A stretch of 64,000 nt of DNA from Neocallimastix sp. 'constans'. Lineage: Eukaryota. The notes beneath the pieces were generated by a model. That model searched no databases. It was not told where the DNA came from and saw only the letters and a list, made by a program, of their open reading frames with translations. A program made the translations under genes and the position numbers. The stretch is from positions 248,001-312,000 of the forward strand of contig JBODTK010000117.1 in the NCBI GenBank assembly GCA_050613775.1. The letters run 5' to 3'. Positions 20,790-53,116 of this stretch are shown piece by piece. Positions within the stretch are counted from its first letter, which is position 1. Every line of letters starts with the position of its first letter.

Positions 20790-21349
20790 AAGTATTTATT
20801 AAGTGTTAAGTAGTAAGTGTTAAGCAATAATAAATTATAGTAATAATTAATAATCTATACAAAAAAATTTTTTTTTTTTTACATTTTTTTAATTATAATT
20901 TAACAATGAAAAATAGAATAATTTGAATATTTAAGATTAATAAAAAAAAAATAAAATTTTTTTTGGGTAAATAATTTAATTATTAAATAAATTAAATATA
21001 TAAATTATAATATATATATATATATATATATTTTTTTTTTATTAATTTTTACGAAAATATATAATATTTATAGTATTTATTAAGTGTTAAGTAGTAAGTG
21101 TTAAGCAATAATAAATTATAGTAATAATTAATGATCTATACAAAAAAATTTTTTTTTTTACATTTTTTTAAGCAATAATAAATTATAGTAATAATTAATG
21201 ATCTATACAAAAAAATTTTTTTTTTTACATTTTTTTAATTATAATTTAACAATGAAAAATAGAATAATTTGAATATTTAAGATTAATAAAAAAAAAATAA
21301 AATTTTTTTTGGGTAAATAATTTAATTATTAAATAAATTAAATATATAA

Positions 21350-21396
<47 letters not shown>

Positions 21397-26901: not shown

Positions 26902-31561
<4,660 letters not shown>

Positions 31562-36479: not shown

Positions 36480-38040
36480 TATTATATCTATCAATAATTT
36501 TATCAATATAATCTATTTGGTTTATTTTAAAGCCATATTAGTTTTATAGATGTTAATATTAATAATTTTATTTGCTGTTGACTTTTTTGGAATTTTATAT
36601 TTACATTTGAGTTTTTCAATAGTTTGGTTGATCTTATTGTCGTAACCTGTAATTAAAATATTGTCAATATTTAAAGTTAATTAGCTTATTAATTCTTTAT
36701 TTTATTTTATTTTCCAAATAGGCACCTATCAGTTTTAATATTGAATAAAACCAATACTCTTAAAAAATTTTGATATTTCATTAAACCACATACTATCAGT
36801 CTGTTTTAATCCGTTTAAAGCTTTTTCAATAACTAAAAATTTATTTTTCTTTTTTGTAATTATTGTCATCCTCTGGAATTTTGGTGTATATTCCATAGTC
36901 CAGTTTTGCGTTTAAATAAGCTACTTTAATATCTATTTGTTTTAAATTCCAATTTGAATTAGCAGCAACGGCCAACGGTTAATCTAAAACTGTCGCTTGT
37001 ATTGTAGGTGAGTAAATTTCCATGAAGTCCTGTCCAAGAATTTGTTGAAATTCTCTTGTTACATGTCGTGTCTTTTTGATATTATTGTCTTTTGTGGTAA
37101 TAACCCATTTTGTATCTATTATATTTGGGTTAGTTGGAATTTTATCCACTATTTCCATTACTTTGATATTATACATATTGTTCAATTCGTCATTGATGGC
37201 AGTTTTCCATTTTTTGACCTCTCTAGTTCTAAGAGCTTGGTTGATGTTATTTGTGTCTTTCGTTACAATACTTAATATTTTATGTTTTTTATTCTTATTT
37301 TTATTTATAATTTTCATTTTTCTCTGATTTGGTGATTATATAATGGAATCACTGTCGTCATTTTCATTATCATTTATAATATTATTATCAATTGATCTTT
37401 TCCTTTTGTTAATATCTATATTATTAATTTTATTGTATTTTTTTCTTAAATTTGTATTAGTATTGTTATCAGTACTATCATGTATAAGAGTATTGTAATT
37501 ATTTAAAATTCCGAAGATTTCATCATTATTATAGATGACATTATTTTCAATTTTCTAATTTTTATAATTATTTTTCGAGTTATTGTTATTATTGTTAACT
37601 AGGTTGTCAGTATTAGTATTATTATTATTATCATTATTATAATTATTAGTAATATTATTATTGCTATTATTGTTAACTATGTTGTCAGTATTAGTATTAT
37701 TATCATTATCATTATCATAATTATTAGTAATATTATTATTATTATTATTATTATTGTTATTATTATTGTTATTATTATTGTAATTATTATTGTTATTATT
37801 ATTGTTATTATTATTGTTATTATTGTTATTAACTTTTGATGTATTATGTAAATTTTTTATTTCATTTGTTAAGCTAATTCTAGTTCCACTATCTACAATA
37901 CAGTGTGTCATTTTATTTACTTTGTAATTATTGATTGAGACACAGTAACATTTCGAGTATAATAAATATGTGATTTATCATCATTTTCTGAATCATTTGA
38001 TGTGTATTTTTTGTTTTCTTCTTCATTAACTTTACCTGTG
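36480..38040 (-). mobile_element. Ty1/Copia retrotransposon remnant (protease, Asn-rich spacer, RT; integrase not seen)
   Basis: Protease motif CIVDSGT at ~37890. RT motifs WKTAINDELNNM...IIDTKWVITTK...FQQILGQDFMEIYSP and QIDIKVAYLNAKLD, with many stops and frameshifts. Confidence 0.85.
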
Positions 38041-40200
38041 TGATAAAAATGAAACTAAAATTAACTAAAAAAAATTAATAACTAAGATACATTAAGATTA
38101 ATATAAAATGAAAAAAGAAAATCTTAAAAAATTAAAAAAAAAAATTATTAGAAAATAATGATATTTTTGTCTCTTTTTTTTATAAAGATATTATTTTTTA
38201 AAAAGACAAACGTCTTCGTATAATTGTAATTGTTAATAAAATTTTTTATATCTTTTGAATGTTTTGATTTTCTATTCGATTAATATAGCTCTGATTAATG
38301 TAATAATTTTCTTAAAAATAATCATATATAAACTAAAATGAAAAGGTTAATAAAATGTTAGTAGTGAAAGACTATAAAAAGATTCCCATCTGTTAAATAA
38401 AGTCTTAAACACAAGCTTTGGAATAAATCAATCTCCTACATTTTTATTTTATAATAGCCACATGAGTTTAAATAATACTATAGAAAAATACATATACAAA
38501 ATAATGCTAAAGTAAAAAATACAATAGATTTATTACAATGACAACAAGTAGAAACTACATTATATTATTTATTATAAAACATCAATGTTATTATATATCC
38601 AGTTTAAAACAATATAAGACATCAAGTTCACTTTCCATAGTCTTCTTATATTCCAAAATTTCTCTCTTCGTGCTAGAAGCCACTTAAAAAGGATAACCAT
38701 CCATTATCATCAGAATTACATAAAACTGTAATTAGTACATCGATAATGTCACAACCTTTAATCAACCTCGAAAAATAAAAAAGAAAAAGAAATTCGTGAT
38801 AAAGAACGTGCTAGTACTTTTCTATCACCTATGGAAATTGTTTGATATAGATTTATCTAATCGCAGAAAAGAAAAAGAAAAAGGAAAAGGAAAAGAGGTT
38901 AGTGATACAGAACTTGCATCTACTTCCACCTCGCCTATTGAAATTGTTGATATTGATGAAACTGATCATATTATTATTGATAAAGATGAAAATAGTATCC
39001 AAATAAATACATTAAATAAACTCGTTAATGAGAAAATAAAAGTAAAATAAACCTCCTGGGAATGAAATTCCGAGAGTTTCAAGAAAAAATCCAAATGATA
39101 GCTGATCATCTACCTCACGACGTTATTAAAGATTTAAATAACTACTAAATGTAATATTACCTTTGGAGAATTATTGTAAGTATCACCAAAAATCAGATCT
39201 CAGGTTGCAAAAGGTTTAAAGTTAGAAAAAGATTCCATTAAGATAGCCGGTGATTATAATTAATAATCTTTATCACACTTATAAAAGTAAAAGCAAAGAA
39301 CCCAAAGAAGATGATATAGCCATGGTTGACGTTACTGTTGAAGGAGTAAAAGGAAAAGCATTGATTGATTCTTTTAGTAATTTAAATATTATTACTAATC
39401 AATTCCTTAGAAAATAACCTTCTGTATATGAACCTGTTGGAATCAGTCGTGGAAGAATCCGATTAGCAACTATGAATGATAATTACTCGGAAAATTTTTT
39501 AATCAATATTCCTATACAAATTAATAATTTCCAAATGATCGCTGCATGTAGAGTTATAGATAAAGGAGATCCTTTCCTTGATATTCTTATTAACTTGAAA
39601 ACTCAAATGAATCATAAATTGTTTATTCACCCTATTCTTTATAGTCTTTTGCCAATTCAGTAATAATGAATTTGTTGATGAAATTGCTCCTATAAACAAT
39701 CATTATGAAAATGAAGAAAAATTAGTCTGTTTTGAAAAAGCTATTTCTAATGAATCTGTTAAGAAAGAACTTAAGAAAATGGAAGGTCTTCCTCCTCAAG
39801 AATATATTAATATTGAAAATTTTATAAATACTCTTAATAAAAAGTATCGAGATCAAATAATTAAATTTTTAGAAGATAATATAGTTATTATTGCTACCTT
39901 TTCCGAAGAATTAACATCTTCGAACTTATCTCCACATAAAATTCACCTTAAACCTGGTGCTAGGCCAATTAAACAAACATTTTATAGAATCTCAAAACTT
40001 AAAACAGATATTCTTAAAGAAGAACTTACAAAATTAATAAATAAAAGACTTATTGAACCATCATATTCGGAATGGTCTTCGCCTGTTGTTCTTGTTCCTA
40101 AACTAAATGGTAAATGGAGAATGTGTGTTGACTATAGAAAAGTCAATGATGCTACAATAAAAGATTCTTATTCTCTCCCAAATATTGACGAATTATCATT
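38041..40200 (+). mobile_element. Ty3/Gypsy retrotransposon remnant (gag end, protease, 5' RT), truncated
   Basis: ITFGELL*VSPKIR precedes the protease VTVEGVKGKALIDSFSNLNII...CRVIDKGDPFLDILINLKTQ. RT start is PHKIHLKPGARPIKQ..YR...WSSPVVLVPKLNGKWRMCVDYRKVN...LPNIDEL. The left boundary (TGATA at 38041) is tentative. Confidence 0.88.
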
Positions 40201-40994
40201 TTGATAAGATTTTATGTCAATCTTTATTTTCTTTCCATTTCTTAACCTTATTATATCTTCTTTTAATCTAAATAAATTCATCTCAATGTATTCAGAAAGT
40301 GCAAAAAAAAAGTTTCTGTTCTATTCCAATGATTTGAAATCTCTTTCATTTTAATTGCTTTTACAATTGAAAATGGCCTATATACCTTATAAAATTTTTT
40401 TGTTTATTTCATTATATAATCTATAACTGTCATACCATTTTTTCATATTTTTAAAATTCACTTCATTTTCAATTTCATTAATTGATTTTTTATTATTTTT
40501 TTTTTTTTTTTTTGATTTTTTTTTTGTGCTTTTTTTGCTTTTGAATATTATATAATTTTTTATTACTATTTATTTTATTACATATTAAAATATTTTTATG
40601 AATTAGTTCTTCAGTTTGGAGAGATTCTTTACAATCTATTATTTCTTCTATATTCCTCATTTAGTTTCCGGTTTTTATATTTTCTTGTATGAGACTTATT
40701 TAATTTTGTCATTTTCAACCAGTAGTTTTTAACATAATGAAATAAATGTTAAAACGAAATGATGCATTTTTGTTTTTTTTCTTTTTTTGTTTCTTTATTA
40801 TAAAATTTCTATTTAATGCGAATCTATTACATGATTCTATTTTCTAAAATATTATTATTATTTTTTTTTATAAAAAATATATCATAATAATTTAATTAAT
40901 TCATATAATCTACATATTATTATTATTATTATGCTATACCTTTTTACTTCTAAATTTCAATATGTTTTATAAATTTATTATTTTTACATTATAT

Positions 40995-45908: not shown

Positions 45909-46525
45909 ATAATAAAAAGGATAAAATTATTTAAAAATATTTTTTTATTATTATTTTCATAACATTTTTTAATTAAAATATTATTTACAAAAATTTTAAT
46001 TAAATGTTATGAAAATAATTACAGTCCATGTGAATTAAAACGTGATTAAATAAATGATATACGGGACTTTTATGTGCAATAATTTATAAGCAGTGGGTTT
46101 TAAATAATGGTAGTTTAGTAAATTTTATTAATAAAATTATATTATTCGTACAATTAAAATAATAATTCTAATTCCTAAAAATTTTACAAGAGAGTTCTCT
46201 ATTTCTAATATAAATAATTTAATTTATAAGAAATAGGTAATATATTAAATACATGTTCTAATATATAGAACTATATAAATTTTATATGAATTAAAGTATT
46301 ATAATTATTATAATTATAATAATACATATTGAAATAAAATAAAATAAAATAATTATTATCAAAAAGATATAAATTTAATATTTAATAATTATTATTAAAT
46401 ATACAAATATGTTACTACACATATTTGTTTTATATCAGAAATGCCCTTGCTAAAAATTAAACTATATATTTTTTTTATAAAAGAAAATATAAGGTTTAAT
46501 TAATATAAATAATAATTTTAAAATT

Positions 46526-47391
46526 TTATTTTCTTTTATATTTATAATTCCTATTTGTCCATTTGGTATCTACGCGATTATTACTATAATTAATAATCTC
46601 CTTTAACGCGATTTCAGGTTTGGGCATCATAATTTTATAAATATTTATTTTATTTTTATCATTATTTTGAATATAAATATATGGAATTTTAATTATTTTT
46701 TTAATTTTATTAATTTTTATTTTCTTATCACTTTCTACATTTATAATATTACTAAAATCAATCGGTGAATTATTATTATTAATTTTTCTTTCTTTTATAT
46801 TAGTAATATTATTAACTGAATAATTTTTTTTTATAAATTGTTCATTTTTATTAGCATTTGAAGTAATTTGAATATTATCTACTTTTGAATTGTTACTATC
46901 AATAATATTTATTTCCGTAACCAAACCAGAAGTTAGAGATTTATTAATTCTATTGATAATGCTATCAACTTTAACAGATTCATTGATATTTATTTCTTCT
47001 TTTACAATTGTATGACTATTTATTTTGTTTCTTATATTTTCAGAATTATTAATAATATTTTTATTTTTACTATTTGAATTAATATTTTCCTTATTATTTA
47101 TTATTACAATACTATTAATCTCAATACTATTATTTTGATTTTTCTTAATATTGGCACTACCTTTAATATTATTTTTATTTTTTTCTTTAGTAATTATAAT
47201 ATTGTTGTTTGTTTTACATTTGCTATTACTATTATTTACTAATTTATTATTTTCTCTGAAATTATCCAATTTTAACGCGTTTAATTTATTTAGTTTCGTG
47301 TTTATTATGTCATCAACCTCGTCATTTTTAGTATTATTAATTTTATTACTATTATTGTTATTATTATTATAAATGTTATTATTATTATAAA

Positions 47392-47425
<34 letters not shown>

Positions 47426-47941
47426 TTCTTCATTTTTATTGATTCTTTTATTTAAAACAGATAATTTTTCAAGTTCAGCTACCACTCTAAATTCAGAAGT
47501 TCCTTGTTTCAAAAGAATTAAATTGTCGCTTGGGTCAATAATAATTCCTAATTCTCTTTGTGTTTTAAAATTCAAACTAATATCATAAAATGGATTTTCT
47601 TTCTCAACTACTCTGAATATTACATTTTTTTGAACACCACCAATAGTTAAATTTAAAATTGTAAGTTTAGTTATTCCAGTAATACTTGAGTCATCAATAC
47701 AATGATTAAGAATATATTTTTCCAGAAAACTACGATTTACCAAATTATTTTTACCGTATCCTTTTAAAATACACCTAGCTTCCTTATTATCAACAAGAGC
47801 TAATATTCCCATTGATTCACCATCTACAAACTCATCTAATTCATCCACGCCATCACTAACTCCAGTTTCAAATTTACCTTTTTGAATTAACAATTTTAAC
47901 AATTGTAATTTTTCTGTTAGGTTATCTTGATTTATATCCAT
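46526..47941 (-). CDS. 471-aa protein: retropepsin-like (Gypsy protease) domain lacking the catalytic Asp, plus an Asn/Lys/Ile-rich tail
   Basis: Uninterrupted ORF. ALVDNKEARCILKGYGKNNLVNRSFL aligns without gaps to VTVEGVKGKALIDSFSNLNIITNQFL of the Gypsy protease in this window (D->K60). FRVVEKENPFYDISLNFKTQRELGIIIDP aligns to CRVIDKGDPFLDILINLKTQMNHKLFIHP. Confidence 0.8.
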
Positions 47942-48542
47942 TTTATTTCTATATCTATTTTTAAAATGTACTATTAATTAATATTATTAAATATACTACT
48001 ATTAAAATACACAATATTTTTATCTTATTATACTTATATATATTGTAATTTTATTCCTAAGTTTTAACACTTTTAAACTATTTATATCTTCCTACTCTTA
48101 TTTTATTTAAAAAAAATATTCCTATTATATAATTTATCTAAATTATTCACTAAAATGCTAATTAAAATAACAATATTTTTACTATTTCACTCTCTAATTA
48201 TTATTATTATCCTACTTAAACTACCTTACTTTTAACACTAACACTATATTAATAAATTATTTATATATATATTTTTATTAGATTTCCGAATATTTAATTA
48301 TTTTAAAACAATTTATTTAAATTATACTAAAATGAATGAAATAACATATATTGTATAATTTTCTCTTCACCAAAGATGAAATAACTATAAATAACCAATA
48401 AAAAAAATTAAAAATCTATATCCTAAACATATATATATATTAATCCTAACTAAAGAGAATTTATGTAAATATATACGGATTTATAATTAATTAACAAAAT
48501 TACTAAACACCACTACTTATAAATTACTTTTTACACAGCACA

Positions 48543-48560
48543 TCCCCGATATCTCCACCA
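48543..48560 (-). promoter_or_regulatory. Primer-binding site, tRNA-Ala-like
   Basis: Minus strand reads TGGTGGAGATATCGGGGA, 5 nt inside the 5' LTR. It is complementary to a tRNA 3' end ...TCCCCG.. ATCTCCACCA typical of tRNA-Ala. Confidence 0.8.
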
Positions 48561-49669
48561 ATTTTTGATATACGGGACTTTTATGTGCAATAATTTATAA
48601 GCAGTGGGTTTTAAATAATGGTAGTTTAGTAAATTTTATTAATAAAATTATATTATTCGTACAATTAAAATAATAATTCTAATTCCTAAAAATTTTACAA
48701 GAGAGTTCTCTATTTCTAATATAAATAATTTAATTTATAAGAAATAGGTAATATATTAAATACATGTTCTAATATATAGAACTATATAAATTTTATATGA
48801 ATTAAAGTATTATAATTATTATAATTATAATAATACATATTGAAATAAAATAAAATAAAATAATTATTATCAAAAAGATATAAATTTAATATTTAATAAT
48901 TATTATTAAATATACAAATATGTTACTACACATATTTGTTTTATATCATAAATTTATGGAGTAAAATATAAATTTATTTATAAATGAATCTATAAAAATA
49001 AAATACAATAAAAAAAAAAAAAATAAAAATTTTTTTAAGTATATTTGTATTTGTATTTGTATATTGTTCAAAATGATTTTATTATTTAGTTGTTATTTAA
49101 AAACAAAAATGTATACTAAAAAATATATATATATATATTTTATATAAATATTATAATTATCATTTTTAAAAATAATACATATTGCTTTTTATTTTCAATT
49201 CATTTTATTTATAAAATAAATAAAATAACAATTTATATACATATGTTACTAATAATAATATTTTTTAAACATAGATTTTAAATACAATTTATTTAAAATC
49301 TAAGTAACGAAAATCTTAAATATTACTAATAAATTTTATTAGTTAGATATTATTTCTTTTTTTTTTTAGAATCTGCAAAATGGTTAATGATGAATATAAG
49401 TCTCATATTTTTTAAAGCGCTTGCCACACTATCTATTTTAAAAGATGTAATTTCTTTGTTTTATTATTTTAGATTTAACTGGTAATCAAGTTACTACACA
49501 TAATATACATTACACAGAAAAAATTTTTTTTCAACTACTGAACATATTTTTATTCTTTATTACATTAAATTTCAATGATTAATTAATTTTTTTTTTTAAA
49601 TTTTATTATATTTTATTTTTACTTAATCTTTTCCATACATTTTATTTTCATCTTTAAATTACTAAATGA

Positions 49670-51750
49670 ACTTCACCTGTAGGGTTGTCTTGCCTGTTTT
49701 TTTAGATACTTCTATCCGACAGAGTAATATTTCTTACTTTATAGTAGTTAATTCTAATTGGAGGTATTGGTCCATTAGTATTCACAATAATGCTAAGAAC
49801 ACAGCGATGTCTAGAACTTCTACTGTAGGGTTGTCTTGCCTGTTTTTTCCTAGGAATATTATTTCTGGCTAAAGTGGTGCCTAATGATTCTCCGTAGGGT
49901 CGTCGTTCAGATTCTAGCTTAGGATAATTTTTGCTGGCCAAAGTTTCCCTTATATAATTTCCGGAGGGTAGTCCTGGTATCCCTGGTTGTCGATAATCCT
50001 CACTGGCAAAATCTTCTCCTAATAAATTTCCGGAGGGTAATCGTAGTAACTTTGAGTGAGGTTGATTTCCACTGGCTGAATTTTGTCCTATAGAATTTCC
50101 GGAGGGTAGTCCTGGTATTCCTGGTTGAGGATATTCCTCACTGTCCAAAGTTTCCCTTATATAATTTCCGGAGGGTAGTTCTGGTATTCTTGGTTAAGAT
50201 AATCCTCCTTGGAAAAATCTTCTCTTAATAAATTTCTGGAGGGTAATCATAGTAATTTTGGGTGAGGTTGATTTCCACCGGCTGAATTTTGTCCTAATGA
50301 ATTTCCGGAGGGTTGCGAGCATCTTGTTATATTAGATTTATAATCTTTTGGTTTAATAAGTAATTCTTATAATTCATTGTTAGATACTTCTATCCAACAG
50401 AGAAATATTTCTTTGCTCTGTAGTAGTTATTTCTAATTGAACTTCTCCTGTAGGGTTGTCTTTTCTGTTATTGCCTATTAAGATTATTTCTGGCTAAAGT
50501 GGTACCTAGTAATTCTCCGTAGGGTCGTCGTTCAGATTCTGGCTTAGGATAATTTTTGTTGGCCAAAGTTTCTCCTATAGAATTTCCGGAGGGTAGTTCT
50601 GGTATTTCTGTTACGGATAATCCTTGGAAAAATCTTCTCTTAATAAATTTCTGGAGGGTAATCATAGTAACTTTAGGTAAGGTTGATTTCCACTGGCTGA
50701 ATTTTGTCCTAATGAATTTCCGGAGGGTTGCGAGCATCTTGTTATTTTAGATTTATAATCTTTTGGTTTAATAAGTAATTCTTATAATTCTTTGTTAGAT
50801 ACTCCTATCCAACAGAGTAATATTTCTTTACTCAATAGTAGTTAATTCTAATTGGAGGTATTGGTCCATTAGTATTCACAATAATGCTAAGAACACAGCG
50901 ATGTCTAGAACTTCTACTGTAGGGTTGTCTTGCCTGTTTTTTCCTAGGAATATTATTTTTGGCTAAAGTGGTGCCTAATGATTCTCCGTAGGGTCGTCGT
51001 TCAGATTCTGGCTTAGGATAATTTTTGCTGGCCAAAGTTTCCCTTACATAATTTCCGGAGGGTAGTTCTGGTATTCTTGGTTAAGGATAATCCTCCTTGG
51101 AAAAATCTTCTCTTAATAAATTTCTGGAGGGTAATCATAGTAACTTTGGGTGAGGTTGATTTCCACTAGCTGAATTTTGTCCTAAAAAATTTCCGGAGGG
51201 TTGCGAGCATCTTGTTTACATTAGATTTATTATTTTTTGGATTAATAATTCTTGTAATTCTTTGTTAGACACTTCAATCCAAAAGAGTAATATTTTTTTA
51301 CTTGCTCTGTAGTAGTTATTTCTAATTGGAGGTATTAGTCCATTAGTATTTACAATAATATTAAGAACACGGTGATGTCTCGAACGTCTACTGTAGGGTT
51401 GTCTTTCCCGTTTTTTCCTAGGAATATTATTTCTGGCTTAAGTGGTGCCTAGTAATTCTCCGTAGGGTCGTCTTTCAGATTCTGGCTTAGGATAATTTTT
51501 GCTGGCCTATATAATTTCCGGAGGGTAGTTCTGGTATTCCTGGTTAAGGATAATCCTCACTGGCAAAATTCCTTCTAATAGAATTTTGGGAGGGTAATCA
51601 TAGTAACTTTGGGTGAGGTTGATTTCCACTGGCTGAATTTTGTCCTATAAAATTTCCGGAGGGTAGTCCTGGTAGTCCTGGTTGAGGATAATCCTCACTG
51701 GCAAAATCTTCTCCTAGAGAATTTCCGAAGGGTTGAGACCATCTAGTTAC
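49670..51750. repeat. GC-richer 69-bp-monomer higher-order tandem array
   Basis: The core (AATTT)CCGGAGGGT or variants (CTGG, CCGT, CTGT) occurs at 49823, 49892, 49961, 50030, 50099, 50168, 50236, 50305; 50586, 50651, 50720; 51055, 51124, 51193; 51518, 51587, 51656, 51725. Distinct monomer types recur in ~420-530-bp blocks. Confidence 0.92.
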
Positions 51751-52108
51751 AATAGATTTATTTCCTTCTGATTTAATAAGTAGTTCTTGTAATCTTTTAT
51801 TAAGTACTAGTCTTTTTAAATTTAATCCTTCATTAACAACGATTGTCATTAGGAAAGTCTTCTTTCTATATTTATCATAAAATTGTATTACCAGTATACA
51901 TTGTTTCGTCACGACTGCTTGAAATGAAAATGGAGGAACATTATTATCTATAATTAGCAATAACTCATTGATTAATAAAAAATATAAAATTTCAACCTAG
52001 TTCATCATATTCAAAAACACCGATAAATCTAATATCAAGAATAATTTTATATTTTTGGAACACTAAGAGATCTAATAATTCTTCTTTCATTGGTTTACAG
52101 GTAATAGG

Positions 52109-52330
<222 letters not shown>

Positions 52331-53116
52331 ACTATTAAAATTAATACTAATATTATTATTTTTATTAATACTTCTATTATTATTTTTATTATTATACCTA
52401 CTATTATTTTAATTACTATAACTATTATTATTTTTATTATTATTAGTTCTTTTTTTAAATATTATTAGTTTTAATTATAATTGTTACTATTTTTAATCTA
52501 AAACCAATATAAATTATATTTTCTTAACACCAATACTTACTATAATAGTAATACTATTAATATATGTATTTTCTTTATATTTTTGTTTGTTTTTTATAAA
52601 TTAAAAAAATTATAAATATAAAAATTAAACATATATAATATTACAAATATAGTAATAAATTATAATATCTTTGACAATACTATATTAAAAAATTTATACG
52701 AACTTTTTTATTTTTTTATTTTTTTATTTTTTTATTTTTTTATTTTTTTATTTCTTATTTTTTACTTTTTTATTTTTTATTTTTTTATTTTTTATTTTTT
52801 TATTTTTTTATTTTGTTGATACTTAAATAAAATATAATATATTTTCTATTAAGATAAATATTTAATAATAAATTATTATATTTTAATTTTATGAAATGTG
52901 AAGTATTATATTAAATAAAAAAAAAAGAAAATAATAATACTATAAGTTATTAATATACTTTATTACAATTTATTTAATATATATAACCGTAGTATTATAT
53001 TTTAAAATGTAATATTCATACATTTGTTTTAAACAGTATAATAGAATTATCATTCATGATTTTTATTGATAATTTTAAAATTTACTATTATAAATAAAAT
53101 ATACTTTATATTTTAT

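Follow-up and report, generated by a model that had tools for sequence, protein, structure and literature searches.

The array of 69-bp tandem repeats within a 64,000-nt stretch of DNA from Neocallimastix sp. 'constans' (hereafter, the window) is, with a probability that we put at roughly 0.8, a pseudogene of a small orphan family of Neocallimastix repeat proteins, in which unequal crossing-over probably amplified the higher-order blocks once the gene had died. Most likely, we are dealing with an ordinary compound coding minisatellite, pseudogenised and belonging to an orphan family, that likely has no present function. The significance of the locus is modest: it would illustrate how, in a fungal genome of very high AT content, a repeat within a protein can turn into higher-order DNA resembling a satellite, and it adds an orphan family of 23-aa repeats, with no new function or mechanism shown.

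The key features of the array are summarized in Table 1. Anchored on a common GAGGG/TAGGG core, 20 monomers can be delineated between positions 49823 and 51724, of which 17 are exactly 69 bp long and the other three measure 68, 65 and 58 bp. The monomers belong to four types, A, B, D and E, with 78-99% identity within a type and 46-74% between types, and form four blocks that lie about 470 bp apart, are 89-94% identical to one another and are separated by linkers, with an additional terminal linker of 146 bp. The definition of the monomers with TRF, suggested in the original prediction, yields periods of 69, 138, 206 and 474 bp. The original prediction of mutually homologous but diverged monomers of at least four types, spaced nearly always by exactly 69 bp and arranged in about four higher-order blocks with linkers in between, is borne out in all these respects, as is the description of the array as a GC-richer island, given its GC content of 36% against 14.5% and 7.7% in the two flanks and 19% in the whole window. 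Genomes of anaerobic fungi are described as AT- and repeat-rich (PMC5622200). The TCCGGA hexamer, originally considered to be a conserved core, is indeed enriched, with 11 occurrences in the array and a single one in the remainder of the window, but is not universal: it is present in 8 of the 20 monomers and at the starts of three linkers, and is absent from the other 12 monomers, including all those of types D and E and three of the five B monomers. On the coding strand, the hexamer is simply a pair of Ser-Gly codons. The array occupies 2 kb at a single locus of the window, which contains no second array.

Table 1. Features of the 69-bp repeat locus (positions in the window)
Feature	Positions	Strand	Description
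Terminal linker L0 and fifth-block remnant	49658..49822	-	E-monomer end and short-linker junction
Fifth-block remnant	49658..49701		left end of the array
Longest open stretch in the array	49702..50193		ORF of 163 aa; held by block b1
Block b1	49823..50304	-	7 monomers, plus-strand order E, D, A, B, A, A (68 bp), B
Linker L1	50305..50447	-	143 bp; variant of the long linker shorter by 54 bp; decayed coding sequence
Block b2	50448..50719	-	4 monomers: E, D, A (65 bp), B
Linker L2	50720..50916	-	197 bp; coding-derived; frameshifts common to other linkers
Block b3	50917..51192	-	4 monomers: E, D, A, B
Linker L3	51193..51390	-	198 bp; same two shared frameshifts
Block b4	51391..51724	-	5 monomers: E, D (58 bp), A, B, A
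Upstream coding-derived stretch	51725..51996	-	in frame with the monomers
Possible intron	51948..51996		49 nt, GT-AG, CTAAT branch-like motif; predicted in two gene models
Further upstream coding-like piece	51997..52408	-	long AAT (poly-Asn) microsatellite; gene models of the locus begin at 52090

A decayed protein consisting of 23-aa repeats was one of the options put forward in the original prediction, and it is the option favored by the composition of the minus-strand frame that reads LPSGN. Over the 17 full-length monomers, the GC content of the three codon positions in this frame is 0.49, 0.48 and 0.24, and position 3 is also the lowest in six host ORFs (GC3 of 0.11-0.19). The LPSGN frame has the best codon-usage score (0.09, compared with 0.0 to -0.39 for the other frames and 0.32 for the host) and accumulates 8 stops in these monomers, the other five frames having 13-50; its antisense mirror displays the same GC pattern but contains a stop in each of the 17 monomers. 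When the 69 columns were shuffled 2000 times and the best of the six frames was scored, the observed GC contrast was reached in 20 shuffles, the codon score in 26, and stops and codon score jointly in one frame in 3, with the qualification that these p-values rest on about 23 columns and on monomers that are not independent; the low stop count by itself was reached in 987 of the 2000 shuffles and is not significant. The signature extends beyond the monomers: the non-repeated segment 51730-51960, which continues the LPSGN frame, contains no stops in 77 codons, with codon-position GC of 0.40, 0.26 and 0.16, and both halves of linker L2 carry an LPSGN-like GC pattern. Taken together, codon-position GC, codon usage, the distribution of stops, the in-frame continuation and the existence of relatives at the protein level suggest that the array most likely derives from a coding sequence composed of minus-strand 23-codon (69-bp) repeats.

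This coding sequence carries numerous lesions and appears to diverge neutrally. Stops in the LPSGN frame affect 8 of the 17 full-length monomers, and six of these eight result from only two changes, CGA to TGA in four of the five B monomers (the fifth has CGA, in agreement with the original prediction, in which the four translated monomers were correct as well) and CAA to TAA in two of the five A monomers; the remaining two lie in E monomers. Deletions of 1, 4 and 11 bp shorten three monomers. Purifying selection in the LPSGN frame was not detected at any depth, with pN/pS of 1.13 within types and 1.21 between types, and in the comparison between types, position 3 is the least variable. For monomers of the same type, pN/pS falls within the range of neutral simulations in all six frames under both genetic codes that were tried. 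The differences that separate this locus from other copies are distributed over codon positions as 14/14/11, with nine synonymous, among the 39 that could be placed of 40 listed and 144 in total.

The linkers bear on the order of events. The related proteins P0024, P0005, P0010 and P0027 continue in frame past the motif G(P/Q/K)I(P/T), entering an acidic stretch, whereas all three long linkers change frame, relative to these four proteins, just past G(P/L)IP, and relative to P0024 and P0005, a further change of frame follows within a few codons, at KKY(Y/F)S, in all four linkers. Because these frameshifts are common to the linkers, we infer a single inactivation followed by block duplication, so that the higher-order blocks likely multiplied after the gene was lost. 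The ancestral product, as can be surmised from the fragments, would have been a Pro/Gly/Ser/Asn-rich and likely disordered protein in which a linker alternated with blocks of 23-aa repeats; the gene would have been inactivated once, and slippage or unequal exchange would then have given rise to the present higher-order pattern.

A phmmer (HMMER) search with the 163-aa open stretch as the query against 1.84 billion representative proteins returned 12 proteins, 11 of which are members of the family. Two of these clusters, 91-93% identical to the query, represent the locus itself or its orthologue, and the other nine show 36-63% identity. All six named proteins in the family clusters come from Neocallimastix, where copies are scattered across different contigs in two assemblies. 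The family proteins are 67-270 aa long, none above 270 aa, and the repeat frames are visibly mixed in P0001, P0003, P0007, P0008 and P0030; the Neocallimastix 'hypothetical protein' models of this family look like pseudogene fragments. The relatives share the motif G-N-x-(L/I)-G-x-x-(L/S)-A ... P ... R-L-P-(S/Y) as well as RQPY at the start of the linker. No intact longer member turned up in two dedicated searches, which is weak evidence. Searches of Pfam, PHROGs, NCBIfam and the PDB identified no family at cut-off, and the literature searches found no report of a Neocallimastix minisatellite or a 69-bp repeat, with broader searches likewise turning up nothing on the repeat. Structure prediction is uninformative: the AlphaFold model (pLDDT 51, pTM 0.13) is compatible with disorder, and the ESM Atlas gave a model with pLDDT of 0.37, no usable feature match for either query and TM of at most 0.31 by query. 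A tick protein with 23-aa repeats (P0012, E 9e-6) was rejected as a relative: the monomer profile scores 1.5 bits on it against 4.4 for the best shuffle, and 21 of 200 periodic shuffles equalled or beat it.

Sequencing runs, of which 7 of 20 were examined (X8, X14-X17, X19 and X20), point to additional copies. The isolate run X8 contains the locus at about 100% identity along with other copies at about 82-85%; of the 46 contigs examined in this run, 20 have an identity of at least 99% and 22 fall below 90%, with base differences of about 15-18% in the long divergent pieces. Several joints in X8 tie fewer monomers directly to the same upstream segment. These divergent contigs and joints led us to conclude that the genome probably harbors a small number of copies, dispersed and diverged, that differ in their number of monomers; depth does not translate into a copy number here. 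In X14 and X15, a contig connects the beginning of block b3 with the end of block b2 (51093 to 50621 in X14), a junction that is not found in the window; such a mosaic of blocks is as expected from unequal exchange or conversion.

The closest known parallel appears to come from another fungus, Candida glabrata, where compound minisatellites and megasatellites are described as coding, built from multiples of three and enriched in pseudogenes (Thierry et al. 2008, PMC2566889), with 12 of 144 minisatellites located in pseudogenes according to the same source (PMC2566889). In common with that system, the array consists of tandem repeats in coding-derived sequence, with a multiple-of-three motif and several motifs per array, and has dispersed paralogues and a pseudogene setting. 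Unlike in C. glabrata, where the motifs are shuffled and differ in size, those of the present array are homologous to each other, have one length and follow a regular order, and the unit is Pro/Gly/Ser/Asn/Arg-rich, outside any adhesin context. For the SHITT motifs of C. glabrata, purifying selection is reported to persist even in pseudogenes (PMC2919712), whereas the motifs described here evolve neutrally. Overall, the array displays several features of a coding minisatellite in a pseudogene, namely a multiple-of-three unit in coding-derived sequence, stops and frameshifts, and neutral divergence. It lacks those of the C. glabrata megasatellites, whose SHITT or SFFIT motifs measure at least 126 bp, belong to genes for cell-wall proteins or adhesins and are subject to purifying selection; no adhesin family was matched by the array.

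The MORN repeat is another unit of 23 aa, with a P-x-G-(N/D) turn-like motif and a distinct pattern of aromatic and Gly residues. The 23-residue period and the turn-like motif are found in the LPSGN repeats, but the aromatic and Gly pattern is missing, and there is no Pfam match to MORN for the window or the relatives even at E up to 10.

The alternative that fares best, and is compatible with the main reading, holds that the family of this same dead coding repeat was not one of host genes but the ORF of a low-copy transposable element, now extinct, which we regard as possible, if tentative. Such an origin would fit the state of the family, in which all 11 clusters are short fragments, several mixing frames, as well as the dispersal of the copies over different contigs of both Neocallimastix assemblies and the abundance of element debris in the neighbourhood. 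In addition, the repeat part of the metagenome protein P0030 runs directly into a stretch that presumably resembles a Ty3/Gypsy reverse transcriptase (RT) motif; this junction may reflect a nested insertion or hint at the origin of the family. However, P0030 has no RT match in Pfam and gave no alignment to the RT-like ORF in the window, and neither terminal repeats nor a transposase, RT or integrase could be linked to the array. The lack of any match at cut-off in Pfam, PHROGs and NCBIfam would also weigh against a transposon ORF, as would the short spliceosomal-type intron placed upstream by two gene models. Furthermore, the repeat that adjoins the array has a summed depth in X14 about 100-fold higher, and no listed contig joins the two.

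A bolder extension of the pseudogene reading, to which we give rather little credence, would see in the family the remains of a mobile element, or of a protein class with a new 23-aa repeat, that is undescribed and specific to Neocallimastix. The locus would then capture the birth of a higher-order satellite out of a dead protein repeat, while exchange of blocks between strains goes on.

It is considerably less likely that the locus is a living spliced gene for a short protein similar to the gene model P0019 (225 aa), with most of the array serving as an intron. The gene models P0018 and P0019, in two Neocallimastix assemblies, and the candidate intron (Table 1) are consistent with such a gene. 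Three RNA-type runs also contain exact or near-exact pieces of the array, and contigs from RNA libraries match parts of the locus exactly. However, these pieces are single contigs of 151-176 nt with a depth of 2-4 and show no splice joint, the coverage being too thin to count either way. Moreover, the splicing of the repeat part is not the same in the two models, no signal of selection is seen, and the structural models cited above are of low confidence.

Still less probable is a non-coding functional array, be it a centromere-type higher-order repeat (HOR) satellite, a set of phased protein-binding sites or a series of processed RNA units, with an incidental three-base periodicity. HOR satellites of the alpha-satellite type consist of ordered, diverged monomers in near-identical blocks that form long, high-copy, non-coding arrays. 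The strict 69-bp phase, the ordered, diverged monomer types, the high identity of the blocks and the block mosaics in other runs, which are signs of unequal exchange and turnover, all fit this shape, so that the satellite option of the original prediction holds as far as form is concerned. It does not hold in other respects: the array spans only about 2 kb and four blocks, sits at a single locus in the window, includes a non-monomer linker inside the blocks and is coding-derived. More generally, the three-base periodicity and the open frames reach into non-repeated flanks, the hexamer is absent from more than half of the monomers, and the relatives differ in monomer number. The processed non-coding RNA option finds no support: Rfam yielded nothing at E up to 1, and none of the eight folding tests (four types, both strands) gave a signal, the z-scores ranging from -0.23 to +1.03. 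Nor does the suggestion of an iteron-like array of a viral element: pattern and protein scans of metagenome contigs, viral contigs, GTDB genomes and phages gave no locus.

Finally, we find it hardly credible that the true frame is the minus-strand YPPEI frame, with TAG and TAA read as Gln, and that the sequence came from a donor that uses a code of the ciliate or recoded-phage type. The pN/pS of YPPEI is the lowest of all frames, at 0.51 within types and 0.64 between types, and TAG or TAA occupies one fixed column in 16 of the 17 monomers, although a loose end in run X20 reads TGG at this column. However, the low within-type value is attributable to base composition, being unexceptional in neutral simulations (reached in 100 of 500 with table 1 and in 46 of 500 with TAA/TAG as Gln, among 12 tests in total), the fixed TAG is a by-product of the conserved (L/I)G in the LPSGN frame, TGA breaks the frame in the linkers and upstream, and the host genes use the standard code.

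The surroundings of the array combine host genes and mobile element remnants. The ORFs of the window, in the standard code, include what we take to be glycoside hydrolases with dockerin-like repeats and an ABC transporter, and Pfam matches identify ankyrin and subtilase domains, a set of genes indicative of an anaerobic gut fungus; a ciliate-type code for the host, considered as a candidate, is ruled out, given that the window ORFs use the standard one. The 936-aa ORF at 26902-29712 is presumably a fusion of a GH9-like C-terminal part, a ricin-type lectin-like region, a GH43-like region and dockerin-like repeats. At 49424-49660, a truncated piece of a very high-copy repeat abuts the array; this repeat is present in all RNA-type runs examined, its summed depth in X14 is in the thousands against 10-30 on the array, and its other copies are preceded by a purine run, which we infer to be similar to the polypurine tract that precedes an LTR. 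At 46055-48950, direct repeats with 382 of 385 bases identical flank a 483-aa Asn-rich ORF (46526-47977, minus strand) with what we take to be a degenerate retropepsin-like stretch (no Pfam match), which makes this segment a likely young non-autonomous LTR element; a third copy of the direct repeat, 90% identical, lies at 11611-11991. The segments 36826-37974 and 39611-40204 are, presumably, decayed Copia-like and Gypsy-like RT fragments, respectively, without confirmation in Pfam. A 67-bp exact tandem duplication is nested within a larger local duplication at 21100-21390, downstream of an ankyrin gene, and a MITE-like element at 8597-10048 has terminal inverted repeats of about 250 bp (81% identity), subterminal units of 15-16 bp and a 7-bp microsatellite core.
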